Source: an uncultured Gammaproteobacteria bacterium (GTDB lineage: Bacteria > Patescibacteriota > Patescibacteriia > Magasanikbacterales > UBA10003). From it: a DNA stretch of 57,914 bases. Location: NCBI GenBank assembly GCA_964596405.1, contig CAZQSS010000001.1, forward strand, positions 23,020 through 80,933, in the 5' to 3' direction. The position numbers and the translations under genes were made by a program. Position 1 is the stretch's first letter. Every line of letters begins with the position of its first letter. Below the pieces are notes generated by a model. The model saw nothing but the letters and a program-made list of their open reading frames with translations. It ran no database searches and had not been told where the DNA came from. This document shows positions 2 through 50,946 of the stretch, piece by piece.

Positions 2-1042
2 ATGTTTAAGAAACTTTTAGATAATATCAAACAAGATGTCGGCATTGACCTGGGCACCTCCAATACTATTGTTTACGTTAAAGAGCGGGGGATTATTATT
101 AATGAACCGACCGTGATTGCCATTAATTTGCGCACCGAGCAAATTATCGCGGCCGGCCGCGAAGCCAAAATGATGTTGGGCAAAACTCCGCCCTACATTG
201 CCGTCACCCGGCCCTTGGTTCACGGCATTATTTCTGATTTTGAAATTGCCGAAAAAATGCTACGGTATTTTATCAGCAAAATCACCGAAAAAAGCCCATT
301 TTTTGCTCTGCGTCCCAATGTGGTCATCGGCGTGCCGCTGGATGTGACCGAAGTGGAACGCAAGGCGGTGGAAGATGCCGTGAGCTCTGCCGGAGCGCGT
401 CGCGTTTCGATTGTTGAAGAACCGATGGCGGCCGCGATTGGCGCCAAATTGCCGATTGAAGAACCGGTGGCGAGTATGATTGTGGATATTGGCGGCGGCA
501 CAGCTGAGATTGCCGTCATCTCGCTGAGCGGCGCGGTGCGTTGGAAATCAATTAAAATTGCCGGCGATGAAATGAACAAAAATATCGTTCACTATGTTAA
601 GGATCGGTATAACCTTTTGATTGGTGAATCTCACGCCGAAGAAATAAAAATCAGAATCGGTTCGGCCAAAGAAGTGGGGGAACCGCTGGTTTTTAATTTG
701 CGCGGCCGGGATTTGGTCACCGGCTTGCCGCGTGAAATCGCCATTACCGACATAGAAGTCCGGGAAGCGCTGAGCCGTTCGGTTTGGTCTATTATTGACG
801 CTATTAAATCCGTTTTGGAAGTAACGCCGCCTGAATTGGTGGCGGATATTCATGATCGCGGTATTGTTCTCTCCGGTGGCGGTTCGCTTTTGCGTGGCTT
901 GGATCAAGCCATCTCCGCCGCGACCGAAATTCCGGTCCGAGTGGCCGATGACCCGCTGACTTGCGTTGTCCGCGGCACTGGTATTTTGATTGACCGGCCG
1001 GATTTGCTGAAAACCGTGGCGCTGCCCTCATCAAGCAATTAA
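2..1042 (+). CDS. mreB: Rod-shape determining actin-like ATPase MreB
   Basis: 346-aa ORF with actin-fold phosphate motifs DLGTSNT and DIGGGTAEIAV and adenosine motif VLSGGGSLLRGL. It is followed by mreC, mreD and PBP2 in the canonical order. Confidence 0.95.
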   Translation: MFKKLLDNIKQDVGIDLGTSNTIVYVKERGIIINEPTVIAINLRTEQIIAAGREAKMMLGKTPPYIAVTRPLVHGIISDFEIAEKMLRYFISKITEKSPFFALRPNVVIGVPLDVTEVERKAVEDAVSSAGARRVSIVEEPMAAAIGAKLPIEEPVASMIVDIGGGTAEIAVISLSGAVRWKSIKIAGDEMNKNIVHYVKDRYNLLIGESHAEEIKIRIGSAKEVGEPLVFNLRGRDLVTGLPREIAITDIEVREALSRSVWSIIDAIKSVLEVTPPELVADIHDRGIVLSGGGSLLRGLDQAISAATEIPVRVADDPLTCVVRGTGILIDRPDLLKTVALPSSSN

Positions 1043-9859: not shown

Positions 9860-9936
9860 TCTGAATTGGAGTTCATGCGGTTGAGCGGGGGACTTTAAAG
9901 CCCCCAAAGAGGGGCTCGGTGGCGGTTAAAACTCAA

Positions 9937-9970
9937 AATCCTTTGGGATGTCTCCCAAAGGATTTTTTAT
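9937..9970. terminator. Bidirectional stem-loop terminator in a convergent intergenic region
   Basis: AATCCTTTGGGA-tgtc-TCCCAAAGGATT, followed by TTTTTTATTTTT on the + strand and a T-rich run on the - strand. Confidence 0.65.
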
Positions 9971-10122
9971 TTTTGTTTCTGATCTAGCAATGAATATTTT
10001 TCTTTGGGCGGATATCTAGATGGCTGGCAAATTTGAGGCATCAAGTAGGGGGGGTATAAGCATAGCCCGCTTTATCTAGTGTCGCCCAATATATCTTATA
10101 CGACGCACCTCCTTATTAAAAT

Positions 10123-16818: not shown

Positions 16819-17259
16819 TTATTTTTCAATTTGAGGATTGCCGTGTTTGGCAGGGTGACGGCGAGCCACGCGGAGGCGGGTCAGTTCGCGTTCAATTTTA
16901 CCGGCCAAAGCCGCATAATCAACATCGTCGGTATGTTTTTGTTTAAGCAGGTCTTCCGCTTGTTTGCGGGCCGCTTCAGCGCGGGTAATGTCAATATCTT
17001 TAGCCCGTTCGGCATTGTCGGCTAAAACCACCACGCGGTTCCCGGGCAGCACTTCAATGTAACCGCCGGCGCAGGCCAAAAATTCTTCTTCTTTGTTTTT
17101 TACAATTTTAAGTTCGCCGGGTTTCAAAATCGCCACCAGCGGTATGTGGTTGGGTAAAACGGTGATCTCGCCTTTTTGAGTAGGCAAAGTAACTTGATCC
17201 ACCTCTTCTTTGTAGACCACGCCTTCGGGAGTGGTGATTTCAAAGTTTAATTTGGTCAT
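16819..17259 (-). CDS. atpC: F1 ATP synthase epsilon subunit
   Basis: 146 aa counted from the ATG at 17259. Beta-sandwich plus helical hairpin, and the last gene of the atp operon. The longer GTG-started ORF runs into repeat element A1. Confidence 0.85.
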   Translation of the reverse strand: MTKLNFEITTPEGVVYKEEVDQVTLPTQKGEITVLPNHIPLVAILKPGELKIVKNKEEEFLACAGGYIEVLPGNRVVVLADNAERAKDIDITRAEAARKQAEDLLKQKHTDDVDYAALAGKIERELTRLRVARRHPAKHGNPQIEK

Positions 17260-17410
17260 ACCCAGTATATCAACCCCGCATGATTTCATCACTTGGGGGA
17301 GAGTTTATTTAGTTTAGTAAAGATTGTTTATTTTTTGATGACCCAGTTTTTTATCCGCCGCCTCTTTTTGGTCGCCCGAGGCGACCTTGCGGGGTTGTAT
17401 TACTGGGCAT
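17257..17410 (-). repeat. Long-stem intergenic element, family A copy 1 (atpD|atpC spacer)
   Basis: On the sense strand, ATGCCCAGTAATACAACCCCGCA pairs with TGCGGGGTTGATATACTGGGTAT, and the next G completes the atpC ATG. The arms are identical to those of the copies at 23595-23742 and 42788-42935. Confidence 0.85.
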
Positions 17411-17413
17411 AAA

Positions 17414-21799: not shown

Positions 21800-21848
21800 A
21801 GAACACAGATAGCACAGATTTTATTACAAATTTTACAGATCACAGATT
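21797..21848 (-). repeat. TCTGTG-repeat stop-to-start spacer module, copy 1 (atpF|atpH)
   Basis: The sense strand reads AATCTGTGATCTGTAAAATTTGTAATAAAATCTGTGCTATCTGTGTTCTATG. It spans the atpF TGA to the atpH ATG and is near-identical to the module at 40614-40662. Confidence 0.8.
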
Positions 21849-22391
21849 TTTGACAGCCTCTTCAATCAGTTTTTTATCTTTTTCCGAGGTGATCTTTTCA
21901 CCAATAATTTTTTGAGTGGCCTCAATCACCAATTCAACAGTTTGTTTTCTAACTTCAGTAAACATTTTATTCTTCTCTTCCTCAATAATTTTTTTGGTTT
22001 CCGCTAAAACCTTCTCGGCCTGGCGCTTGGCATTCTGAGTCGCCTCTTCTTTTAATTCGGCGGCCTGTTTTTCTACTTTAGACAACAACAACTCGGATTC
22101 AGCCCGGGCTTTGGCTATCAGCGCCCTTTTTTCCGTTTCCGCTTCTTCCAGTTGTTTGGTAGCGCGTTCGGCATTGCTGATGCTCTCGTCAATCAGTTTT
22201 TGTCTTTCTGCCAGCTTTTTCGTCAACGGCTTGAGGATTAAAAACCACAAAATGACCGCCACAATGGCGAAATTGATCAGTTGAAAAATAAATAACGGCA
22301 AATTAATGCCCAGCGAGGCCAATAAGCCCTCGGATACCTGTTCTGTGGCTTCGGCCGCTTCTTCGGCGGCGTAAACGGTTTCGATAAACAT
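21840..22391 (-). CDS. atpF: Fo ATP synthase b subunit
   Basis: 183 aa with one N-terminal TM helix followed by a long charged helix. Confidence 0.8.
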   Translation of the reverse strand: MFIETVYAAEEAAEATEQVSEGLLASLGINLPLFIFQLINFAIVAVILWFLILKPLTKKLAERQKLIDESISNAERATKQLEEAETEKRALIAKARAESELLLSKVEKQAAELKEEATQNAKRQAEKVLAETKKIIEEEKNKMFTEVRKQTVELVIEATQKIIGEKITSEKDKKLIEEAVKNL

Positions 22392-22820: not shown

Positions 22821-23597
22821 TTAATGTGATTCTTCACCGTGCGGTTGGGCGGTGGCCATGGTCAAATAAACCAGCGTCAACATGGCAAAAACGCTGGCCT
22901 GAATCAAGCCCACCAGCACCTCCAACATCATAAACGGCGTGGGCACAAAAAGCGCCACCAAGCTGGTCATCACGGTCATCAAAACTTCACCGGCAAAGAT
23001 GTTGCCAAAAAGACGAAAAGAAAGTGAAAGCACTTTAGCCGCTTCGCTGATGATTTCAATAACACCCACCACCATTTCAACCGCGGCGGTAAAAATTGCG
23101 ATCGGGCCGTGCCGCAAACTCTTGATCAACGTGCCGATTTGAATGAACTTGTTTAAATGAGTCAGAATGCCCACTGTCATTAAGCCATAAACATGCGAGG
23201 CCACAACAGCCGTTAAAGCCATAGCCACAGTTAAATTGAGGTCGGTATTGGCCGGTCTCAAGATAAAAACATGACCCAATTTGACGCTGCCGGTGCCCGG
23301 AATCAAACCCAACCAATTAGAAAGAAGAATAAAAAAGAAGACCGAACCTACCAGCGGCAAAAAGCGCAAAGTATTTTTTCGGTCTCCGGTCACTTGGTCA
23401 AAATATTCCAAGAGAGTTTCAATAATAAATTCAAAAAAGTTTTGGAGCTTCCCCGGCCGCAACGACAACCTTCTTTTGATCAAGATGCCAATAATCAAAA
23501 AAATAATTATCGCTATCCAAGCATTTACAATCGTATTGGTAACCGGAATGTTTAGAATGTAGAAAAGTATTTCTGGCGCCAGGGTGGGAATATGCAT
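22821..23597 (-). CDS. atpB: Fo ATP synthase a subunit
   Basis: 258 aa counted from the ATG at 23597, with the conserved Arg motif LSFRLFGNIFAGE. The longer GTG-started ORF runs into repeat element A2. Confidence 0.9.
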   Translation of the reverse strand: MHIPTLAPEILFYILNIPVTNTIVNAWIAIIIFLIIGILIKRRLSLRPGKLQNFFEFIIETLLEYFDQVTGDRKNTLRFLPLVGSVFFFILLSNWLGLIPGTGSVKLGHVFILRPANTDLNLTVAMALTAVVASHVYGLMTVGILTHLNKFIQIGTLIKSLRHGPIAIFTAAVEMVVGVIEIISEAAKVLSLSFRLFGNIFAGEVLMTVMTSLVALFVPTPFMMLEVLVGLIQASVFAMLTLVYLTMATAQPHGEESH

Positions 23598-23742
23598 ACC
23601 CAGTATATCAACCCCGCATGATTTTATCACTTGGGGATTTTATTGTATTTAATTATTTTCTAAATTTGGCTTAGTGGTCTAATAAATTGCCCTTCTCACG
23701 TGTTTCGCGAAGCGAAACTTGCGGGGTTGTATTACTGGGCAT
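23595..23742 (-). repeat. Long-stem intergenic element, family A copy 2 (atpI-like|atpB spacer)
   Basis: Same arms as copy 1 with an inner hairpin GTTTCGCTTCGCGAAAC. The 3-prime arm ends on the atpB ATG. Confidence 0.85.
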
Positions 23743-23750
23743 AGTTTAAC

Positions 23751-29621: not shown

Positions 29622-29640
29622 ATATAATATAAATTTTACT

Positions 29641-29670
29641 CATCCTTACATTCTTAAGTTTGTAAGGATG
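29641..29670. repeat. 30-nt palindromic element, CATYCTYACA family
   Basis: CATCCTTACA-TTCTTAAGTT-TGTAAGGATG. Related copies lie at 34498, 34857 and 50912. Confidence 0.75.
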
Positions 29671-29677
29671 TTATTTT

Positions 29678-32919: not shown

Positions 32920-32951
32920 CTATTCTCTTATTCGTGCGAATAAGAGAATAG
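32920..32951. promoter_or_regulatory. Perfect 15-2-15 palindrome just after the ArsR gene, upstream of the PNP gene
   Basis: CTATTCTCTTATTCG-TG-CGAATAAGAGAATAG. A near-identical copy lies at 33259-33290. It may act as an operator, a terminator hairpin, or both. Confidence 0.55.
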
Positions 32952-32952
32952 T

Positions 32953-33213
32953 TTAGAGGTGAGAAAAAAGACTCTTAACAACAGGTTTTTGATCTTTTGA
33001 TAAAGAATAAAAAACAGTGAGGCCTTTTTGTTCTCTATCCACAATATCGGCTGCCGAGAGCAGCCCAAGATGTCTGGATGTGCTTTTAAACGACAGCTTA
33101 ATCTCTCTCGCAATTTCCCCCACTGAGGAGGCGCCGTTGTCCTTTAAAAATTTCGCAATCGCCAAACGCCGGTGGTTAGCCATAGCCTTTAATGTTTTTT
33201 CCATTTGTTTCAT
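32953..33213 (-). CDS. ArsR/SmtB family transcriptional regulator
   Basis: 86 aa with a winged HTH (LKAMANHRRLAIAKFL, SVGEIAREIKLSFKSTSRHLGLL). Confidence 0.8.
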   Translation of the reverse strand: MKQMEKTLKAMANHRRLAIAKFLKDNGASSVGEIAREIKLSFKSTSRHLGLLSAADIVDREQKGLTVFYSLSKDQKPVVKSLFSHL

Positions 33214-33258: not shown

Positions 33259-33290
33259 TTATTCTCTTATTCGTGCGACTAAGAGAATAG
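33259..33290. promoter_or_regulatory. Second copy of the 32-nt palindrome, upstream of the ArsR gene
   Basis: TTATTCTCTTATTCG-TG-CGACTAAGAGAATAG, with one arm mismatch. Confidence 0.55.
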
Positions 33291-33533: not shown

Positions 33534-34097
33534 TTATTTTTTGACTTTATACATTTTACCATGACCGGGAATGATGTAATCGGCGAGTTTTAGGATTTTT
33601 TTGCGGTTTTCCGCCAGCTTCTTTTTGTCGCTGGCATACGGGTCATCTACCGGCAAGCCTTCTTTCCAAAAAAGGTCGCCGACAATCGCCACAATCCCCT
33701 TTTCAGTTTTTACCAAAAGGCTCAAAGCATCATAATTGTGGCCGGGAGTTTTGATAATCTTGATGTCTTTTGTAAATTGTTCCTGCCAATCCTCAACCGT
33801 GTTTTTATTCCACAAGCCAAAAAATTCCAATGTTTTTGCTTTTGGGAACATCCCGATATTTCTATAATGATCGATGTGAGAGTGCGTAATAAAAACGATA
33901 TTTACGTCATCAATTTCCAATCCTTCTTTTTTTAGCTTATCAACCAGCATTTCCTGGCTTTCCAGTACACCCGGATCCACAATCATAACAATCCCCTTGT
34001 CTTTCACCAAAGTAATCGTCGGGGAGGTTTTTTCGTCACCAGCTTCTTTTGAATCAGCTGAAGTGTATCCTTCAATTAAAATTTTTACTTCGGCCAT
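33534..34097 (-). CDS. MBL-fold metallo-hydrolase
   Basis: 187 aa with the ITHSHIDH motif and distal His/Asp residues (GHNYD, GHG). Confidence 0.8.
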   Translation of the reverse strand: MAEVKILIEGYTSADSKEAGDEKTSPTITLVKDKGIVMIVDPGVLESQEMLVDKLKKEGLEIDDVNIVFITHSHIDHYRNIGMFPKAKTLEFFGLWNKNTVEDWQEQFTKDIKIIKTPGHNYDALSLLVKTEKGIVAIVGDLFWKEGLPVDDPYASDKKKLAENRKKILKLADYIIPGHGKMYKVKK

Positions 34098-34101
34098 AAA
34101 A

Positions 34102-34470
34102 TTATGAATTTAGATGACTCGCGTTATTTTTTTTAAACCAACTGATTAAAAATAAGATACCCACAAGAAATGCCGGAACGTCAATTATTAAAAAAAATAT
34201 TTCCTTTCCTCCTTTAATAGATAATATCATATGCGCGAGGCCGGCGAGAATAAAAACCACTCCGCCAACTATTTCATACTTCCAAGATATCCAGACTATT
34301 ATTGCCAACAGCAATGCGGGAATATTATGCATAAACAAACCCAAAACAGTTGGCCAAAAACCCAGATTGGCGTCAAAAACATCCAATGAAAATACCATTA
34401 AAAATAAAATAAGCGCTATTGACAAAACTCTCGGCGTCCAATATATAAACTTGCTGACATTTTTCTCCAT
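34102..34470 (-). CDS. Four-TM membrane protein, unknown function
   Basis: Hydrophobic ORF. I chose the ATG at 34470; earlier ATGs at 34500 and 34506 fall inside or next to the palindromic repeat. Confidence 0.45.
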   Translation of the reverse strand: MEKNVSKFIYWTPRVLSIALILFLMVFSLDVFDANLGFWPTVLGLFMHNIPALLLAIIVWISWKYEIVGGVVFILAGLAHMILSIKGGKEIFFLIIDVPAFLVGILFLISWFKKNNASHLNS

Positions 34471-34497
34471 ATTAAGAAATTCTGTTTTTAATTTCTT

Positions 34498-34527
34498 CAT
34501 TCTCACATTCTCAAGTTTGTAAGGATG
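34498..34527. repeat. 30-nt palindromic element, CATYCTYACA family (imperfect)
   Basis: CATTCTCACA-TTCTCAAGTT-TGTAAGGATG. Confidence 0.7.
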
Positions 34528-34530
34528 TTG

Positions 34531-34815
34531 TTAAATGTTTTGAAACGATTTGAGAAAACGAACAAAAGTTTTGCCATAAGGCGACAGGGTGTGCTCTACA
34601 AATTTGCCGCGATATTTTTTATTGACAAGTCCAGCCTGAAAAAGCCGACGGGTGTGTTCCCCCAGAGTTTTTACATTAGCGCCAAGCGCTTTGACAATAT
34701 TGTCAAGTGTAATCCCTTCGCTTGAGGCAATGAGAAATAGTATCTCAATACGATAGTGATTAGCCATACCCTTGAGATGCCGTTCCATTTGCTTGGCTGT
34801 TTTTATTCTACCCAT
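34531..34815 (-). CDS. ArsR-like winged-helix transcriptional regulator
   Basis: 94 aa with LKGMANHYRIEILFLI and ITLDNIVKALGANVKTLGEHTRRL. Confidence 0.65.
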   Translation of the reverse strand: MGRIKTAKQMERHLKGMANHYRIEILFLIASSEGITLDNIVKALGANVKTLGEHTRRLFQAGLVNKKYRGKFVEHTLSPYGKTFVRFLKSFQNI

Positions 34816-34844
34816 ATTTTTACAAATTACTTTATCCTCGTCAT

Positions 34845-34873
34845 ATTATACATCATCATTCTCACATTCTCAA
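34845..34873 (-). promoter_or_regulatory. Sigma70-like promoter of the second ArsR gene, overlapped by the palindrome
   Basis: The minus strand reads TTGAGA (34873-34868), a 17-nt spacer, then TATAAT (34850-34845). Confidence 0.5.
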
Positions 34874-34886
34874 GTTTGTGAGAATG
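34857..34886. promoter_or_regulatory. 30-nt perfect-arm palindrome overlapping the -35 and spacer; candidate operator
   Basis: CATTCTCACA-TTCTCAAGTT-TGTGAGAATG. Confidence 0.5.
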
Positions 34887-34994
34887 AGATTTTGTGAGTG
34901 TGGATGTAAAAGGATTTTGTTTTAGTGGGGATTTTACAAAGGTGGTGTCTGCAAAGCACGCCATTGTATACCATTGTATACCAGACATGCGCCG

Positions 34995-35396
34995 TTAAGT
35001 GCCGTTACATGCTATTTTCTCCGATTCTTTTAGAATTGTTTCGGCCAATGATCTTTGCTTGTCAAATGTGGGATGAAAATGAATCTCCATCTGGTACTTT
35101 GGCCATTGGTCATGTTGAACACGGAAAAAATAGACGATTTCTGCTTCAAGAGCTTCAACATCCACATCATCGTTAAAAATCCAAACAATCAATAAATGAT
35201 CACCATTTTCTTTCAGCCATTTATAACCATGATAGCCTGTTTTGTGAGCTGGTTTTACGCCCTGATGAATACGAGAACCCATTGGTTGTTTTGTGATGCC
35301 TATATAGTTGATGAGTCCATTTTTTCCGACCAAATATATTTTATTTCCTCTCTTTGTGACTGGTGCCACAAAATGCTTGGTTCCGTCATTGGCCAA
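34995..35396 (-). CDS. GIY-YIG-like nuclease domain protein (tentative)
   Basis: 133-aa ORF with a TTG start; the true start is uncertain. KIYLVGKNGLINYIGITKQPMGSRIHQG fits the GIY-x9-YIG..R pattern, with Glu in ALEAEIVYF. Confidence 0.4.
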   Translation of the reverse strand: MANDGTKHFVAPVTKRGNKIYLVGKNGLINYIGITKQPMGSRIHQGVKPAHKTGYHGYKWLKENGDHLLIVWIFNDDVDVEALEAEIVYFFRVQHDQWPKYQMEIHFHPTFDKQRSLAETILKESEKIACNGT

Positions 35397-35443
35397 AACA
35401 GAAACAATTTCATTATCTTTTACTGTAATTTTATAAATGTAGT

Positions 35444-35893
35444 TTATATTTTTAAAAAGTTATCGATTACGATTAAAGTGTTAAGGAGGCTGACAAAAGG
35501 AACAAATCGATCAACCATTCCTATGAAAGTAACAAACAGCAACATCAAAACAAGTTCCCCCGCTATAGGTAGAAGCGCCCATAATTTCTTAGTGCCCTTA
35601 TTGTTTAATGCTTTTATGAATACATAAAATAGATAGCTCACGGCAGCTAAATCTATTATATATAACCACCACATAATAAAGAGGGAGGTGCCGTTTGTTC
35701 CATATAAGATGGGTCCTGAGTACAATTTATTTAAAATTAATAAAATAGTATTTTTTATAAAAGCCCATCCGATGGGTATGTAAAAACTTATTAAAATATA
35801 AAGACAAGCTAAAATTCTTAGAGGTGCTAAAAAATCTTTAACAAACAACTCTTGTTTAAAAAATCGTTTAATTGCTTCTATATATTCTTGCAT
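35444..35893 (-). CDS. Polytopic membrane protein, unknown function
   Basis: 149 aa with four hydrophobic helices, in AT-rich DNA. Confidence 0.5.
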   Translation of the reverse strand: MQEYIEAIKRFFKQELFVKDFLAPLRILACLYILISFYIPIGWAFIKNTILLILNKLYSGPILYGTNGTSLFIMWWLYIIDLAAVSYLFYVFIKALNNKGTKKLWALLPIAGELVLMLLFVTFIGMVDRFVPFVSLLNTLIVIDNFLKI

Positions 35894-36031
35894 ATTATTT
35901 GAATTTTATAAATTTAAAAAATACTTTTCCGAGGTCTGTCAAACCTTTAGTTTTTGCCTCTACCCCAGAACCAAACTTATTAGCGCCAAGGACGTACAGT
36001 AGTCCCTTATAACCTAGTGAAAACCCACGTA

Positions 36032-36709
36032 TTAACTGTTTATTTTCTTAAAAATCCGGATCGATTCACAAAAAGTTACTACAATAACCATCCAACTGGC
36101 AATAAAAACAATGAGATTAAAAATGCTTTCCGGCCAAATATTTCTATATGTTATGTAGGATTTATCCGTGTGTACATAAGAACTTTGCTTAATTTCAGCT
36201 ACGCCACCAATTTGATCCGACGAAAGCACCTTGAACATAGGATTGAATGAACTGGGTGAGGGCTTTCGATATACGACTGTCAGGCTCCCAACCACATCCG
36301 TTATTTTAATCGCATTACATGTTCTATTATTTACAGAAGCGTATATTTTATTACTAGAATTATCCTTGTAATTAATTTGTATTTCCATTGCGCCCGCTTC
36401 ACTATCTTTATTATAGGGCAATTGAATTTTCGTGTCATTGATTGAAACCTCATTATTATTGTAAACACAAAAATAGTACCATCTTAGCTTCAATGGAATT
36501 CCAAATAGACTATTGAGTTCATCCAAAGGTGTTTCTGTATTATCAATATTGATGGCATCGATTTTTTCATTATCTTCGGGCAGTACGATTCTCGCTGACT
36601 CGACTAACTGGGGTTTTATCAAAACCCAAGCCATAATAATTGGGACGACCAAAAATAAAATAACCCACAAGACAATTTCTTTTTTGTTATCTCTTATGGT
36701 TTTAAACAA
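36032..36709 (-). CDS. Hypothetical protein with N- and C-terminal TM anchors
   Basis: 225 aa with a TTG start, in AT-rich DNA. I recognise no motif. Confidence 0.45.
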   Translation of the reverse strand: MFKTIRDNKKEIVLWVILFLVVPIIMAWVLIKPQLVESARIVLPEDNEKIDAINIDNTETPLDELNSLFGIPLKLRWYYFCVYNNNEVSINDTKIQLPYNKDSEAGAMEIQINYKDNSSNKIYASVNNRTCNAIKITDVVGSLTVVYRKPSPSSFNPMFKVLSSDQIGGVAEIKQSSYVHTDKSYITYRNIWPESIFNLIVFIASWMVIVVTFCESIRIFKKINS

Positions 36710-36793
36710 TCTGGTTATATAAACTCTAGGTGCCGTAGTATTTTTCGTGATAGAAGCGCAGTGGCTGTTCTGTCTCCGGAATGGCTTCTTAAT

Positions 36794-37924
36794 TTAAAAT
36801 ATAGACTGTGGGCTTTCCTTTTCGGTGGGGGCATAAGATTTGTATCGCGCGCTTCTTCCCAAACCGATTCGCTCAATCTTTTTAAGTTTGAGCAATACTT
36901 CAAGCGTTTGTTTTACTGTCGGTCTGGCTATTTTGGTATTTTCCGCGATATCGCCAGTACTCGTTTCTTTTGCCTTTTCAATGTATTGCCAAACGGTTAA
37001 CTGTTTTTCTGACAGAATTTTTTCTATATTTTCTTTGGATAATAATTCCACCGCCATTTGCGATTGTTTCAAGATGATATCTAAAAAGAAACCAAGCCAA
37101 TCGGCGATGTTTTCATTTTCTGTCCCTATTGTTTTTTGACTGCGCCGTAGGGCAATATAATAATCCGGTTTGTTGTCTTCAACTAATTTTTCATGAGAAA
37201 CATAGGGAATATACAAATATCCCGCTTGGAGTAGCAATAAGTTGGTGAGCACTCGGGATAAACGGCCGTTGCCGTCGGTAAACGGGTGTATCTTCAAAAA
37301 TTCAACCAAAAAATTACCAATCAAGAGTAGGGGGTGGTATTTATTTTCCTCTAATTTTTTTTGCGTCCACTCAACCAGATCTCTCGTTTGGCCCGGAGTA
37401 AGATATGCCGGCACAGTGTCAAACAGAATAGCGACTGATTTTCCAGTATCGTCTAACACGTGAACTTTGTTTTCGCCTTTTTTATAATCGCCGCGATGTT
37501 TTTCGTCCTTATCTACATATTTAAGAAGTTCTTGGTGAAAATGTTTAATGGTACTTTCACTAAATTTTTGCCCTTTCCACGAGTTAAAAACATTGTCCAG
37601 GAGTTCATAGTATCCCCGCGCTTCTTGTTTGTCGCGGTTGGTAAATTTTTGGATGTTAATGCCGCGCATCAATTTTTCAATGTCTTCGTCGGACAGGCGA
37701 GAGCCCTCAATGCGGGTGGACGCGCCGGTGGAGGTGATCAAAACAGAGCGTTTTAAACGCCCCAAAACCTGTGGGCTTAAGCGAGCGCCTGTTATCCATT
37801 GTCCTTTTAGTTCATCAATTTTGGCGGTTTTAGAGACAATAAAAGACGGAATCTGCTCAATTCGTCTGAAAAAATTATTCGAAATTTGATGATTTTCTGT
37901 TATTTTTTGGCTAATATCAGGCAT
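36794..37924 (-). CDS. Fic family protein (AMPylase-type) with C-terminal winged HTH
   Basis: 376 aa with the canonical Fic motif HPFTDGNGRLSR, plus a C-terminal DIAENTKIARPTVKQTLEVLLK helix-turn-helix. Confidence 0.9.
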   Translation of the reverse strand: MPDISQKITENHQISNNFFRRIEQIPSFIVSKTAKIDELKGQWITGARLSPQVLGRLKRSVLITSTGASTRIEGSRLSDEDIEKLMRGINIQKFTNRDKQEARGYYELLDNVFNSWKGQKFSESTIKHFHQELLKYVDKDEKHRGDYKKGENKVHVLDDTGKSVAILFDTVPAYLTPGQTRDLVEWTQKKLEENKYHPLLLIGNFLVEFLKIHPFTDGNGRLSRVLTNLLLLQAGYLYIPYVSHEKLVEDNKPDYYIALRRSQKTIGTENENIADWLGFFLDIILKQSQMAVELLSKENIEKILSEKQLTVWQYIEKAKETSTGDIAENTKIARPTVKQTLEVLLKLKKIERIGLGRSARYKSYAPTEKESPQSIF

Positions 37925-38000
37925 ATATTTAAATTGGACATATTAACTATATCCAATTATATCCGATTAGGGAAAACTAGTCAATTCGATTAGAATGAGC

Positions 38001-40616: not shown

Positions 40617-40662
40617 ATAAACACAGACACACAGATTAAATAAATTTCACAGATCACAGATT
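40614..40662 (-). repeat. TCTGTG-repeat stop-to-start spacer module, copy 2 (glutaredoxin|exonuclease)
   Basis: The sense strand reads AATCTGTGATCTGTGAAATTTATTTAATCTGTGTGTCTGTGTTTATATG. Confidence 0.8.
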
Positions 40663-40893
40663 TTAAAGAAGTTCTTCAATTTTTGTTTTATCAAAACCAA
40701 CAATGATTTCGCCGTCAATATCAATCACCGGCACGCCCATCTGGCCGGACTTGTCTATCATTTCTTCGGCCGCAACCTGATCGGCGGCCACATCTTTGTG
40801 AACAAAAGGAATATTTTTGGATTTCAAAAAATCCATGGCCATGTGGCAATAAGGACAGGTGGGAGTGGAATAGACGATAATTGATTTGGGCAT
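40663..40893 (-). CDS. Glutaredoxin-like protein (NrdH/Grx fold)
   Basis: 76 aa counted from the ATG at 40893, with the CPYC active site and GVPVIDIDGE. The longer ORF translates the upstream 9-nt repeats. Confidence 0.85.
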   Translation of the reverse strand: MPKSIIVYSTPTCPYCHMAMDFLKSKNIPFVHKDVAADQVAAEEMIDKSGQMGVPVIDIDGEIIVGFDKTKIEELL

Positions 40894-41069: not shown

Positions 41070-42407
41070 CTAATATTGAATGATATTGCGGATTTCTTGC
41101 GCCTCTTCGGGTTTGCGGGCCAAGATCTTTTCTATATTATATGTGCCCAGCCGGGGCGCCTCTAAAAACCCGCGCATGGCCGCCTGCGCCAGCCAACCGC
41201 TCTGCACCAAATCCAAAAGCCATTCATTGGTGTAGGCCGGATCATTTTGAGCGATACCGGCGCCAATGGATTTGAGCCAAAGTTTGTTAAACACCTCTTG
41301 CGAGCCGATGGGCGGCGACATTATAATGGGCAAGCCCAAAGCGGAATAAAACGTCAGTTCGCTGGGTTTAGTCCACAAAACATCGGTGGTTCGGAGCAAT
41401 TTATTAAACTTTTTAAAATAATCATTTTTATCCGGCGTGTAAAGTATTTTTACCTGTTTGTCTAAAGATTTGGCCAACCCAGCCTCTTTTGTCGCTTTAA
41501 TAAAATAGTCTCTGATATCTTCGTGAATACCGGCAATCAGATTGAGATTGATTTTTTTATCGGCGATTTCTTTGGCTAAACTCTTTAGAATAGTCGCGCC
41601 AATTTCGCGCTGGGCGCCGGCGCCACCCACGGCAAAAGTAATAGTTAAGGGATGGTTGGATCGCGCGTAAAGATTTTTCCGACCCAGCTGTTTTTGAATG
41701 GTTGAACTATAACGGCGGCGAAAGCGGCCCAGGGGATCCAAATTTATTAGCCGATGGCCCAAATCGTGTTTTAGAGTATTGAGTTTGGGGCCGCCGAGAT
41801 TTTCTTTAGGTAAAGGAAAGCCGGTTAAAAAAATTCTTTCCGGTTTAACGCCATATAATTTTAACCGTTCGGCCACGCGATAGCAGGGCACAAAATAATT
41901 GATACGCGAGGCCGGGGTTTTAAGATCCGCCCAAACCCGAGCGATGTCGGCGTCGCAAATGACGCAATAAATTTCGCCTTCATAATTAAAATACTCCGCC
42001 ATAAAAGCGATGGAAAAAAAACTGGTAACGAGCGGATGCGGCTTTTTGTTGAGTTGCTCGATTAAATGTTTTCCCCACTGCCGTTTTTCAATCAGATGAA
42101 ATATTTCTTTTAACTGAAACGATGGCCGCGAAAGATCTCGTTTGGGATAAAACTCGGGTATCGCCTGAAACTTGTCGTACAAATTAAAAGCCGCCCGGCC
42201 CACCACCGGCACGCGGCTAAAACGGGAGATAAATTCATAAAAACTCTGGCTGGTTTGCCAGATTTTACGGTCGCCCTCCGGAATACCTTTATAATTGTTG
42301 GCCGTGATTATTTTTTTGTAAGCCAAAGGCTGGAGAGGAAAGGTGGCTCGTTGATGACCATAACCCATATCGACCGCCACCAGCCAAACGTGATGATTTT
42401 TTTTCAT
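41070..42407 (-). CDS. GT-B fold glycosyltransferase-like protein (MGDG synthase/MurG superfamily, tentative)
   Basis: 445 aa counted from the ATG at 42407, which forms an ATGA overlap with the upstream gene. Motifs include DMGYGHQRA, FAVGGAGAQ and WTKPSELTFY. Confidence 0.45.
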   Translation of the reverse strand: MKKNHHVWLVAVDMGYGHQRATFPLQPLAYKKIITANNYKGIPEGDRKIWQTSQSFYEFISRFSRVPVVGRAAFNLYDKFQAIPEFYPKRDLSRPSFQLKEIFHLIEKRQWGKHLIEQLNKKPHPLVTSFFSIAFMAEYFNYEGEIYCVICDADIARVWADLKTPASRINYFVPCYRVAERLKLYGVKPERIFLTGFPLPKENLGGPKLNTLKHDLGHRLINLDPLGRFRRRYSSTIQKQLGRKNLYARSNHPLTITFAVGGAGAQREIGATILKSLAKEIADKKINLNLIAGIHEDIRDYFIKATKEAGLAKSLDKQVKILYTPDKNDYFKKFNKLLRTTDVLWTKPSELTFYSALGLPIIMSPPIGSQEVFNKLWLKSIGAGIAQNDPAYTNEWLLDLVQSGWLAQAAMRGFLEAPRLGTYNIEKILARKPEEAQEIRNIIQY

Positions 42408-42790
42408 GGCAGTTCCAATAAAAGTTTGCCAAACGGAATTTCCAGGCAAAAATTTTTATCTTTATTTTGATAAGTTTTACTTTGAGGATTTTGGCGTTCT
42501 TGCAAACTAAAAGAGTAAGTCAGCTCTTCACCACCATTGACCGGATAAGAAATTACCTCCAGCACGCCCACAAGCAGGGTATCGTCATCGGGGTACTCCC
42601 TCTCCCCCATGGGCATGTCTTTTTGAAGTCTTTCCAATTCGGCCTGATTAACGCCGGTTTGTTTTAAAAACTCTAAAGTCATATCCGAGGCTTTATCTAA
42701 ACTTTTTGAACTCATAAGCATGGTTTTGAGTTCTTTTAAACTCTCGTCGGGGTCAAAAATTTTTAAGTCGTTTTCCTGGTGATTGGTCAT
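42404..42790 (-). CDS. Hypothetical protein (128 aa)
   Basis: ORF whose ATG is the last three nucleotides of repeat element A3. It is translationally coupled to the downstream glycosyltransferase-like gene. Confidence 0.5.
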   Translation of the reverse strand: MTNHQENDLKIFDPDESLKELKTMLMSSKSLDKASDMTLEFLKQTGVNQAELERLQKDMPMGEREYPDDDTLLVGVLEVISYPVNGGEELTYSFSLQERQNPQSKTYQNKDKNFCLEIPFGKLLLELP

Positions 42791-42935
42791 ACCCAGTATA
42801 TCAACCCCGCATGATTTTCATCAGTTGGGGATATAAATTAAACTATTTTATTTTATCTACTTGTTCTCCCAGCAACACTCATTTACCCCTATATGTTTCG
42901 CGAAGCGAAACTTGCGGGGTTGTATTACTGGGCAT
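42788..42935 (-). repeat. Long-stem intergenic element, family A copy 3 (outside the atp operon)
   Basis: Same arms and the same inner GTTTCGCTTCGCGAAAC hairpin as copy 2, with a divergent central region. Confidence 0.85.
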
Positions 42936-42984
42936 AAAGATAAAAATTAAGTTTATTCTTATTCATACATTTTACTCCTATTTA

Positions 42985-48095: not shown

Positions 48096-48116
48096 GTTTT
48101 GAGATGGTTCTTTTAT

Positions 48117-48154
48117 ATTCTACCAAAAAATCGCCTTTTAGGCGATTTTTTGAA
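48117..48154 (-). terminator. Repeated cassette: terminator hairpin followed by an extended -10 (TGGTAGAAT), copy 1
   Basis: The minus strand reads TTCAAAAAATCGCCTAAAAGGCGATTTTTTGGTAGAAT, near-identical to the copy at 50870-50906. Confidence 0.65.
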
Positions 48155-49401: not shown

Positions 49402-50871
49402 TTAAAGACTGCCTAAATCAAGATACTCATCAAATTTAATTTCTTTAACAAAATCCGGCATATGGCTGACCAAAATAATCGCGCCCTGATAATTATTAAT
49501 CGCCCGGGCAATAACCGGCAGATGGCGAAAATTGATATGATTGGTCGGCTCATCTAAAATCAAAAGCCCCGGCCGCATTAAAACCAGCCGAGCAAAAGAC
49601 AATAATCCTTTTTGACCTTCGGACAAATGTGAAATTTTGTGATCCATCAGTTCGCCGGTAATAAAAAAACTGGCGGCCACCGAGCGCATTTGCTGGGTGT
49701 CCACCCGATCGGCTAAAATACTTTTCAAGGAATCAAAAACCAGGCTGTCAAAATCTAAAGTGGCAAAATCCTGACTGTAATACCCGACTGTCACGCCGTC
49801 CATAATCACCGCGCCTTCATTTTTATTGTTGACCAAAGACCGCAAGAGCGTGCTCTTACCCAAACCATTGGGGCCGGAGACCAGCAGACGGGACTTTTGC
49901 CGCATAATCAAATTTACTTTTTTAACAACCGGCTTGTGGTCTTTAATAATCTTAACTGATTTTATAGTCACAATGTTCCCCACCACTTCCTGATTCGGAA
50001 TCGTAAATTCCCGGATGGTTTTATCTTCTCTTCTGACCGCCACTTTATTTTCTTCCAAATCTTCGGTTTCTTCTTTCAGTTTGGAAGCCAGTTTTCTCAT
50101 TTTACCGCCTTTATTGGCAAAAAAATTCACTTTTTCTTTACGATCTTTAATCTGTTTTTCCAGCTGGGCGTTTTTCATTTGTTCCCGTTCAATCCGATTT
50201 TTTATTTCCTCAACCACCGAATAATAATCCCCCACGTATGTTTCTATTTTATTGGTAAAAGTATCCAAATACAGCACGCCTTCGGTAAAAGAATTAAGAA
50301 AATCCGCGTCATGCGAAATAACAATAACGGTTTTATCGTACATGACTAAAAATTCAATCAGATGATCAATACCCGCTTGATCCAAATTGTTGGTGGGCTC
50401 GTCTAAAAGCAAAATGTCGGGATTTTGAACCAAAGCAAAAGCCAAAAGAAGCCGGGCTTGCTGTCCGCCCGAAAGTTCCCCCACCAGCCGGTCAAACGGC
50501 GCTTCAAAATTCACCGCCGCCATAGCCTTGCTGATTTTACTTTTTAAATTGGGCGGGGCGATTTCAAAAGCCTTGGCAAAATATTGCTCTACCGTCAAAT
50601 CCAAATCGGCCCGCGCCACCATTTGAAGCGCCGTGCCAATAGTGGCCCCGGTGGCCACCGTCACTTGGCCGCTTTTAGGCTGAATTTCTTTTCGAATAAG
50701 ATTAAACAAGGTGCTTTTGCCCGCGCCGTTTTGCCCCATTAAAGTAATTTTGGCGCCGCGGCGAACGTTAAAACTAACCTCGTTCAAAACGGGTTTGTCA
50801 TGATGGTATTCAAAAGAAACTTCGTTAAATTTTAAGATACCTTCTTCGGCCATATAAGTATTGTTTATCAT
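49402..50871 (-). CDS. ABC-F family ATPase (two ABC domains, no TM domain)
   Basis: 489 aa with Walker A motifs GQNGAGKST and GPNGLGKST and signatures LSGGQQ and LSEGQK. An alternative ATG at 50853 applies if TAGAAT is the -10. Confidence 0.9.
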   Translation of the reverse strand: MINNTYMAEEGILKFNEVSFEYHHDKPVLNEVSFNVRRGAKITLMGQNGAGKSTLFNLIRKEIQPKSGQVTVATGATIGTALQMVARADLDLTVEQYFAKAFEIAPPNLKSKISKAMAAVNFEAPFDRLVGELSGGQQARLLLAFALVQNPDILLLDEPTNNLDQAGIDHLIEFLVMYDKTVIVISHDADFLNSFTEGVLYLDTFTNKIETYVGDYYSVVEEIKNRIEREQMKNAQLEKQIKDRKEKVNFFANKGGKMRKLASKLKEETEDLEENKVAVRREDKTIREFTIPNQEVVGNIVTIKSVKIIKDHKPVVKKVNLIMRQKSRLLVSGPNGLGKSTLLRSLVNNKNEGAVIMDGVTVGYYSQDFATLDFDSLVFDSLKSILADRVDTQQMRSVAASFFITGELMDHKISHLSEGQKGLLSFARLVLMRPGLLILDEPTNHINFRHLPVIARAINNYQGAIILVSHMPDFVKEIKFDEYLDLGSL

Positions 50872-50906
50872 TCTACCAAAAAATCGCTTTTTGGGCGATT
50901 TTTGAA
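50870..50906 (-). terminator. Repeated terminator-plus-extended--10 cassette, copy 2
   Basis: The minus strand reads TTCAAAAATCGCCCAAAAAGCGATTTTTTGGTAGAAT. Confidence 0.65.
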
Positions 50907-50911
50907 TTTCT

Positions 50912-50941
50912 CATTCTCACATTCTTGAGAATGTGAGAATG
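50912..50941. repeat. 14-2-14 palindrome of the CATTCTCACA family
   Basis: CATTCTCACATTCT-TG-AGAATGTGAGAATG. Confidence 0.75.
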
Positions 50942-50946
50942 TTATT

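Follow-up and report, generated by a model that had tools for sequence, protein, structure and literature searches.

The 57,914-nucleotide stretch of DNA analysed here (hereafter the window), taken from contig CAZQSS010000001.1 of an uncultured bacterium, carries three copies of a short repeat that ends on the start codon of the gene behind it. This repeat is probably a non-autonomous DNA transposon of the MITE (miniature inverted-repeat transposable element) type, whose target is YATG (Y, pyrimidine) and which duplicates this target upon insertion. The probability of this reading is put at about 0.75. It is drawn from the inverted repeats, a 4-bp duplication that depends on the site, empty sites, the copy number, the subfamilies and the spread across phyla. 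The original prediction, made from the letters of the window, had considered that a selected structured RNA fits the three copies better than a mobile element. This preference finds no support, given the duplication, which co-varies with the site, the empty sites, the presence of about 60 sites before unrelated genes and the occurrence in three candidate phyla.

The complete unit reads YATG-CCCAGTA...TACTGGG-YATG, with perfectly complementary termini inside a 4-bp direct duplication. The terminal inverted repeats are 20 nt long and complementary at 17 positions (CCCAGTA-ATA-CAACCCCGCA and TGCGGGGTTG-ATA-TACTGGG). The outermost four bases on each side (TATG...TATG) are the target duplication and lie outside the inverted repeat. 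The unit begins one base before the start given previously, with the T at 17411, 23743 and 42936. The element is about 120-160 bp long, and its variants range from 61 to 355 bp. Exact string matches reproduced the predicted coordinates of the three copies, their location on the minus strand and the identity of their arms. The 23-nt arm strings ATGCCCAGTAATACAACCCCGCA and TGCGGGGTTGATATACTGGGTAT occur three times each in the window, and none would be expected according to shuffled sequences. Allowing up to 7 mismatches brought out no degenerate or extra copy in the window.

Copy 1 lies between atpD and atpC and occupies 17257-17411 on the minus strand with both 4-bp duplicates, as delimited by arm matches and fold and by an empty orthologous site in a related genome (L093). 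Its 5' target-site duplicate TATG (17408-17411), the ATG of which opens a non-conserved short open reading frame (ORF), is followed by the left terminal inverted repeat (17388-17407) and by a sub-terminal hairpin with a covarying stem, GGTCGCC-TCG-GGCGACC (17370-17386). Further inside is an arm-like motif, AAAACTGGG (17342-17350), which the alignment reads as a degenerate complement of the left arm. A small hairpin, TGAT-GAA-ATCA (17281-17291), adjoins the right terminal inverted repeat (17261-17280), and the 3' duplicate TATG (17257-17260) provides the start codon of atpC. Copy 2, between an atpI-like gene and atpB, covers 23595-23743 on the minus strand including both TATG duplicates (arms 23720-23739 and 23599-23618, hairpin 23702-23718), with empty sites in L091 and L093. 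Copy 3 (42788-42936, minus strand, both TATG duplicates included; arms 42913-42932 and 42792-42811, hairpin 42895-42911) is located upstream of a 128-aa ORF. As predicted, the 3' end of each copy falls on the downstream start codon and all copies are oriented with the gene. The G after each 3' arm completes the ATG of atpC (17259-17257), of atpB (23597-23595) and of the 128-aa ORF (42790-42788).

The duplication was followed in the family found outside the window, the census of which is described below. The flanking 4-mers are identical at 50 of 59 sites (46 TATG/TATG, 3 CATG/CATG and 1 TAAG/TAAG), and at the other nine they differ by a point change or a 1-nt indel. The first base of the two flanks co-varies (Fisher p = 5e-5). 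Of 52 cases, 48 have T and 4 have C just before the 5' ATG, in agreement with the base that precedes the 3' ATG. Duplications of 2 bp or 3 bp were considered and rejected because of the T/T, C/C and TAAG/TAAG co-variation. A pyrimidine stands at position -1 at all 53 element sites, compared to 66% of ordinary start codons on the same contigs. The 5' duplicate has decayed to ACG, AAG or ATA at about six sites, and the 3' copy remains ATG, which identifies the latter as the start codon in use.

Moreover, junctions without the element are available. The atpD of the window is closest to proteins of Candidatus Magasanikbacteria, and in genomes with 87-88% identical atpD (L093, L091) the element is absent at the atp junctions, which hold a single TATG. 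The empty atpD|atpC junction in L093 reads aaaTAATTATGgcc, and the empty atpI|atpB junctions read TAGTTATGcat (L093) and TAATATGcac (L091). Judged from these alignments, such single-TATG junctions holding the start codon are what is expected of the pre-insertion state of copies 1 and 2. In the Magasanikbacteria genome GWC2_41_17, a different spacer of 150 nt with a 54-aa ORF was observed at the atpD|atpC junction (L091/L092, 9373-9537).

The census was made with the arm alone (CCCAGTAWWWCAACCCCGCA) and required an exact 20-mer in one arm, which biases it towards conserved arms. The taxonomic labels of the metagenome-assembled genomes (MAGs) are the depositors' own. Among species-representative genomes, true copies were found in four MAGs labelled Saccharibacteria and one labelled Kerfeldbacteria. 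The metagenome scan gave 78 loci, mostly from Hainich groundwater assemblies, some of them on contigs identical to the window, and the arm scan of viral contigs returned 0 matches. After de-duplication, 60 distinct sites remained, plus one additional locus (L029). The family is hosted by Magasanikbacteria, Saccharibacteria and Kerfeldbacteria, which NCBI puts in three candidate phyla, and the near-identical arms across these phyla imply horizontal spread. Organisms of the candidate phyla radiation (CPR) are thought of as genetically isolated episymbionts. Matches in non-CPR organisms (Algoriphagus, Bacillus and others; L003, L005, L008, L010-L012, L014, L044, L052, L077, L089) were taken as chance since they have no partner arm or element-like flank. 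A single arm match inside a 454-aa ORF of a Saccharibacteria MAG (L006) was likewise discarded as a chance match. The discarded matches are nearly as many as the roughly 9 that, by estimate, would arise at random when 596 Gb are searched for a pattern of this length.

At 53 of the 58 assessable sites, an ORF of at least 60 codons begins with the 3' ATG, always in the same orientation. Besides atpC and atpB, the recognisable genes include rpmI, rplO, rplC, ruvX and leuS, as read by eye from N-terminal translations. At 23 of the 60 sites, 0-14 nt separate the stop codon of the upstream gene from the 5' duplicate, and the element has thus broken up closely packed operon junctions. The sites away from start codons are in intergenic DNA (L037 with TAAG/TAAG, L015, L026) or chimeric (L082). 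In the latter, at 2239-2386, the 5' flank of an L009-type site is joined to the 3' flank of an L072-type site, which reflects either recombination of two copies or a chimeric assembly at the repeat.

Taken together, the repeat is short, present at about 60 sites and without coding capacity, with inverted repeats, a target duplication, and presence or absence at orthologous sites, as is typical of MITEs. Near-invariant arms combined with interiors that fall into subfamilies match the pattern of a MITE family. The central region had been described as unrelated between the copies of the window. This does not hold for the family, where interiors are grouped in subfamilies, each window copy has close relatives elsewhere and at least 14 copies carry the interior of copy 1. 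In every subfamily, the interior also contains a degenerate sequence complementary to the left arm (..TTACTGGG..), a hint that the element may be of composite origin. In the subfamily of long variants, local hairpins take the place of the inner-arm pairing. One copy (L023, about 372-727, plus strand) holds a nested insert of about 200 nt, itself a long palindrome. The pair L023 and L058, the same site in two genomes, was set aside as a measure of arm selection in situ because the interiors belong to different subfamilies and independent insertion or conversion is possible.

The residence at start codons may be explained by the host's translation signals. Among the 44 ATG-initiated genes of the window, a 4-mer resembling the Shine-Dalgarno (SD) sequence occurs at -20 to -3 in 4, with a background of 5%, and T stands at -1 in 34 (77%). 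TATG is thus the normal start context, and the upstream sequence seems to be of minor importance for initiation. The window holds 461 intragenic YATG sites, 41 at called start codons and 33 elsewhere. Since start codons are mostly TATG and almost never preceded by an SD sequence, they would make up the majority of the YATG sites at which an insertion leaves every gene intact. The element would integrate at YATG and duplicate it, and a cut-or-copy enzyme acting in trans would make 4-bp staggered cuts. This enzyme may be a DDE-type transposase. Insertion at a start codon would be survivable because the 3' duplicate restores an ATG before an untouched reading frame. The YATG preference, a compact SD-poor genome and a duplication that rebuilds the ATG would together account for the residence at start codons. 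The 5' duplicate would persist as a pseudo-start in decay, at the head of a short ORF without meaning. This agrees with the short ORF noted in the original prediction, whose opening ATG and differing ends were retrieved. Its length, given as 18-23 codons, ranges from 8 to 62 codons across the copies, its end is not conserved, and it appears to be a by-product of the duplication.

Once inserted, the element would be transcribed with the host gene and could form a long hairpin with both duplicates at its base. Copies would be tolerated because initiation in these organisms is probably independent of the upstream sequence, and some effect of the hairpin on expression is conceivable. The A and U of the AUG are paired at the base of a 21-bp helix. 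The ribosome might nevertheless gain access owing to the weak basal pairs, the A-rich coding region downstream and the dispensability of an SD sequence. Translation from the 5' duplicate would also melt the stem.

As for the structure itself, in the predicted fold a 3x3 AUA/AUA internal loop separates an outer stem of 11 bp from an inner stem of 10 bp, and the interior is branched. The loop and the inner stem are those previously described, but the outer stem has 11 bp instead of 10, and its outer four bases belong to the duplication. The four basal pairs, U-G, A-U, U-A and G-U, are weak. Compared with shuffled sequences, the fold has a z-score of -6.0 as sense RNA and of -5.6 for the opposite strand as DNA. 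A G-U at the third pair had been put forward as evidence for function as RNA in the gene orientation. This position falls inside the duplication, and copies flanked by CATG have G-C there. Mismatches within the arms, read in the sense direction, comprise 8 G-U and 8 A-C, and those within the hairpins 1 G-U and 4 A-C. G-U is no commoner than A-C and the two strands fold equally well, so the sense RNA is not singled out as the form under selection. The argument for the sense strand is therefore lost.

The covariation proposed for the 17-nt sub-terminal hairpin was confirmed. Its four stem differences between copy 1 and copies 2 and 3 are all compensated, and family-wide, four pairs show double changes in 6-17 of 32 aligned Hainich copies with almost no broken pairs. 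At least 12 different perfectly paired stems exist in the family, and hairpin sequences vary freely among copies with identical arms. The arms are invariant in the same 32 copies and are thus uninformative on pairing. Comparison with Rfam gave no match at gathering score in the window and none at E<=1 on any copy in six loci.

Several observations weigh against a transposon of the simplest kind. Neither the window nor the 94 loci nor two collection scans yielded an autonomous element with these arms, but the exact 20-mer required would let a partner with diverged ends escape. A search for arm pairs 0.7-3 kb apart, a generic inverted-repeat search of all loci and a Pfam search on 30 window proteins gave no partner either. 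The complementarity of the arms is kept by double changes in two copies, at two positions in L048b and at six in L057b. Such compensatory change in the inner arm and the hairpin suggests that the folded single strand matters, be it for mobility or for the host. The ATA/ATA mismatch of the arms is invariant in 60 of 60 copies and is their sole universal asymmetry. Furthermore, random insertion at YATG followed by loss of gene-disrupting events would place about 55-67% of the copies at start codons. The 53 out of 58 observed exceed this expectation (p = 2e-9 to 1e-5), though not by orders of magnitude. Lastly, the approximately 55 start-codon copies all point the same way, which would not be expected if a DDE enzyme attacked a 4-bp target symmetrically. 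The minimal transposon model leaves the strict orientation, the ATA asymmetry and the single-strand pairing unaccounted for. Random orientation and missing covariation had been proposed as marks of MITE-like behaviour. The orientation is not random and covariation is present, but the element appears to be mobile all the same.

Some candidate causes of the polarity were set aside. Replication polarity was tried in a weak test: 32 sites have a G-rich and 13 a C-rich sense strand, so the orientation goes with the gene rather than with the skew. Terminators in either orientation were sought and none was found. The idea of leaderless genes was also dropped, as hexamers resembling a -10 box show no more than a diffuse enrichment upstream of ATGs and their spacing has no sharp peak. 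Two element-bearing contigs each hold an insertion sequence with ends unlike the element arms (L038, 1809-3280; L031, 1873-3246). One is an IS3-like element with two ORFs, and the other has a 438-aa ORF, rve-type by eye, and 20-bp inverted repeats.

The strict orientation invites other readings. One of them, which is unlikely, is that the element seeks out translation start sites actively and with a set polarity, by a mechanism unknown for simple transposons, and that the hairpin, by juxtaposing two AUGs, lets ribosomes reach the downstream one. Leader translation might then melt the helix, the helix might dock in place of an SD duplex, or ribosomes might hop between the AUGs. A cis-acting RNA selected for translational regulation, whose stem sequesters the start codon or serves as a platform for an RNase or another protein, is rather improbable. 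The sense orientation and abutment on start codons would suit it, as would the covarying sub-terminal hairpin, the strong predicted fold (z = -6), the invariant AUA/AUA loop and the position before highly expressed genes that must still be translated. Nevertheless, the target duplication and empty sites are the marks of insertion events, and the host genes have no common function. G-U pairs are not in excess over A-C, the opposite DNA strand folds as well, and no Rfam family fits. Moreover, one copy with its 3' arm unpaired (L063) sits on rplC all the same. Selection as RNA is compatible with the data only as a mobile origin followed by later domestication.

A slimmer chance is given to a mobile expression cassette. 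Its right arm would hold an extended box of the -10 type that faces outward (TG-A-TATACT), four bases ahead of the ATG. The downstream gene would then stay expressed in the observed orientation alone, and both the orientation and the ATA asymmetry would result from selection. Indeed, the sole universal difference between the arms yields TGATATACT on the gene side and TGTATTACT on the other, and TATACT is the -10 box, with a proper -35, of a natural promoter on a related contig. There is also a precedent in the Neisseria REP2 and Borrelia IR repeats, which supply a promoter, a ribosome-binding site (RBS) and an ATG (PMC3184786). However, the spacing of TGATATACT would put the transcription start at or past the G of the ATG, leaving the transcript without its start codon. 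L048b and L061 lack the last T of the box, a consensus scan shows no promoter within the element, these genomes have no sharp peak in the distance from -10 box to ATG, and many copies lie inside operons where no promoter is needed. The least probable reading considered is that of a hairpin-dependent, strand-specific element that an HUH or tyrosine-type enzyme would move in the form of folded single-stranded DNA, much like IS200/IS605 derivatives, REPINs or integron attC sites. Recognition would be of the succession of paired, unpaired and paired segments and a variable loop, which would fix the orientation. The single orientation relative to an asymmetric target fits this idea. With 7+4 bp, an unpaired 3x3 spacer that is invariant, 10 bp and a variable loop of 14 to more than 200 nt, the element resembles a folded attC, and the inner arm (L057b, six compensated positions) and the hairpins keep complementarity rather than sequence. 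Yet such systems leave no target duplication, whereas the 4-mers here co-vary with the site. Copies flanked by CATG and by TATG have the same arms, so that the flank is not specified by an internal guide. Neither a conserved RYYYAAC/GTTRRRY pair nor a cassette array is present, and no integrase or Y1 gene lies nearby among the window proteins scanned.

The first base of an essential gene is normally closed to transposons. In the window, however, the element occupies the start codon of 3 of the roughly 60 genes, and elsewhere in the family it does so in genes for ribosomal proteins, ATP synthase and a tRNA synthetase. If these copies are neutral, initiation in SD-poor CPR bacteria must be remarkably indifferent to a 21-bp helix adjoining the AUG; if they are not, a mobile element rewires the expression of core genes. 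Should the element home to start sites, about 5% of the genes of a CPR genome, including ribosomal-protein and ATP-synthase genes, would be expressed through a structured leader derived from a transposon. The element also has practical consequences, as it misleads gene callers (atpC, atpB) and breaks metagenome assemblies at repeat copies.

Three minus-strand genes follow the copies in the window. The atpC gene (epsilon subunit, 16819-17259) starts at the regenerated ATG and is supported by PF02823 on the identical contig L094. Similarly, atpB (subunit a, 22821-23597) starts at a regenerated ATG, and its N-terminus matches PF00119 genes of relatives. The atpI-like gene upstream of copy 2 corresponds to PF09527. 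The hypothetical 128-aa gene downstream of copy 3 (42404-42790) gave no Pfam match. Mechanical calling extended atpC (16819-17292) and atpB (22821-23630) into the element via an in-frame GTG, adding about 10 spurious residues, and the public gene call on L094 (4355-4825) likewise prolongs the gene into the element.

Other repeats were noted in the window. A second family, a palindrome of about 30 nt (CATTCTCACATTCT..AGAATGTGAGAATG), has four copies (29628-29675, 34485-34532, 34844-34891 and 50899-50946), each adjoining the start of a gene, as would an operator or a further small mobile hairpin. Near-identical 31-nt palindromes, TATTCTCTTATTCGTGCGA(A/C)TAAGAGAATAG, at 32921-32951 and 33260-33290, bracket an 86-aa ORF (32953-33213). 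The common block AAATTT(T/C)ACAGATCACAGATTTT with repeated ATCTGTG, at 21828-21878 and 40642-40692, precedes an atpH-like gene and one for a 3'-5' exonuclease, and may be a regulatory site that the two share. A 43-nt intergenic block found at 48108-48150 and 50861-50903, in which runs of A and T flank a GC hairpin (AAAAAATCGCC-TTTT-GGCGATTTTT), has the look of a terminator/promoter module that was duplicated. At about 9860-10120, the gene strand flips from plus to minus, the GC skew changes sign and the cumulative skew is maximal; this may be a replication terminus. The low-GC region (35-38%) at about 34000-38000, which encodes a Fic-domain protein, a DUF7670 protein and several ORFs without Pfam match, may be an acquired island.

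No account of such an element in Patescibacteria was found in the literature, and a 2024 review of prokaryotic MITEs is silent on start codons and orientation. Several known systems share part of its features. The Correia element of Neisseria (CREE) is alike in being a geneless repeat of about 100-160 bp with inverted repeats, a target duplication and many copies, and in being co-transcribed with its neighbours as a stable hairpin; variants of its ends can influence expression (PMC2649163, PMC10969869). CREE differs by its TA duplication, 26-bp Correia repeat, IHF site and varied intergenic positions. The present element has YATG as target, sits at start codons in one orientation, belongs to Patescibacteria and has unrelated arms. 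In Geobacter uraniireducens, the MITE named Chunjie also lies inside operons without breaking them and has a very stable predicted RNA fold (PMC3184786, PMC10969869), but it has 9-bp direct repeats and 21-bp inverted repeats, and no relationship to start codons was reported. The Neisseria REP2 and Borrelia IR repeats stand immediately upstream of ORFs, contain an ATG initiation codon and have internal stem-loops (PMC3184786). In contrast to the element described here, whose ATG comes from the target, they are devoid of terminal inverted repeats and duplication and bring their own promoter and RBS. No promoter and no SD sequence or RBS was detectable within the present element in a consensus scan.

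The elements of the REPIN/RAYT and IS200/IS605-derived type resemble it as hairpin-forming, strand-specific, high-copy extragenic sequences in which structure is conserved rather than sequence. They are distinguished by the absence of a target duplication and of long terminal inverted repeats and by sub-terminal hairpins recognised by Y1 transposases, none of which was seen among the window proteins scanned. The attC sites of integrons share a folded form with two paired boxes, an unpaired spacer and a loop of very variable length. Unlike attC sites, the element has no AAC/GTT core sites at the helix base and no cassette array, it shows a target duplication, and its copies lie in housekeeping operons; no integrase (intI) was present among the 30 window proteins scanned.

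Among the families of ISfinder, IS1380 makes 4-5-bp repeats and has CC ends. The 4-bp sequence-specific target duplication and the inverted repeats starting with CCC are also features of the piggyBac superfamily, of which IS1380 is a prokaryotic relative used as outgroup (PMC10813416). The usual target of this group is TTAA instead of YATG, and its orientation is not fixed; no transposase of this kind came to light in the window or the loci. The specific 4-bp duplication together with the CCC...GGG termini may offer a lead towards an IS1380/piggyBac-like enzyme. Compared to classical MITEs, the element thus stands apart in its target, its position at start codons and its polarity, and would represent a patescibacterial MITE that rides on start codons via duplication of YATG.

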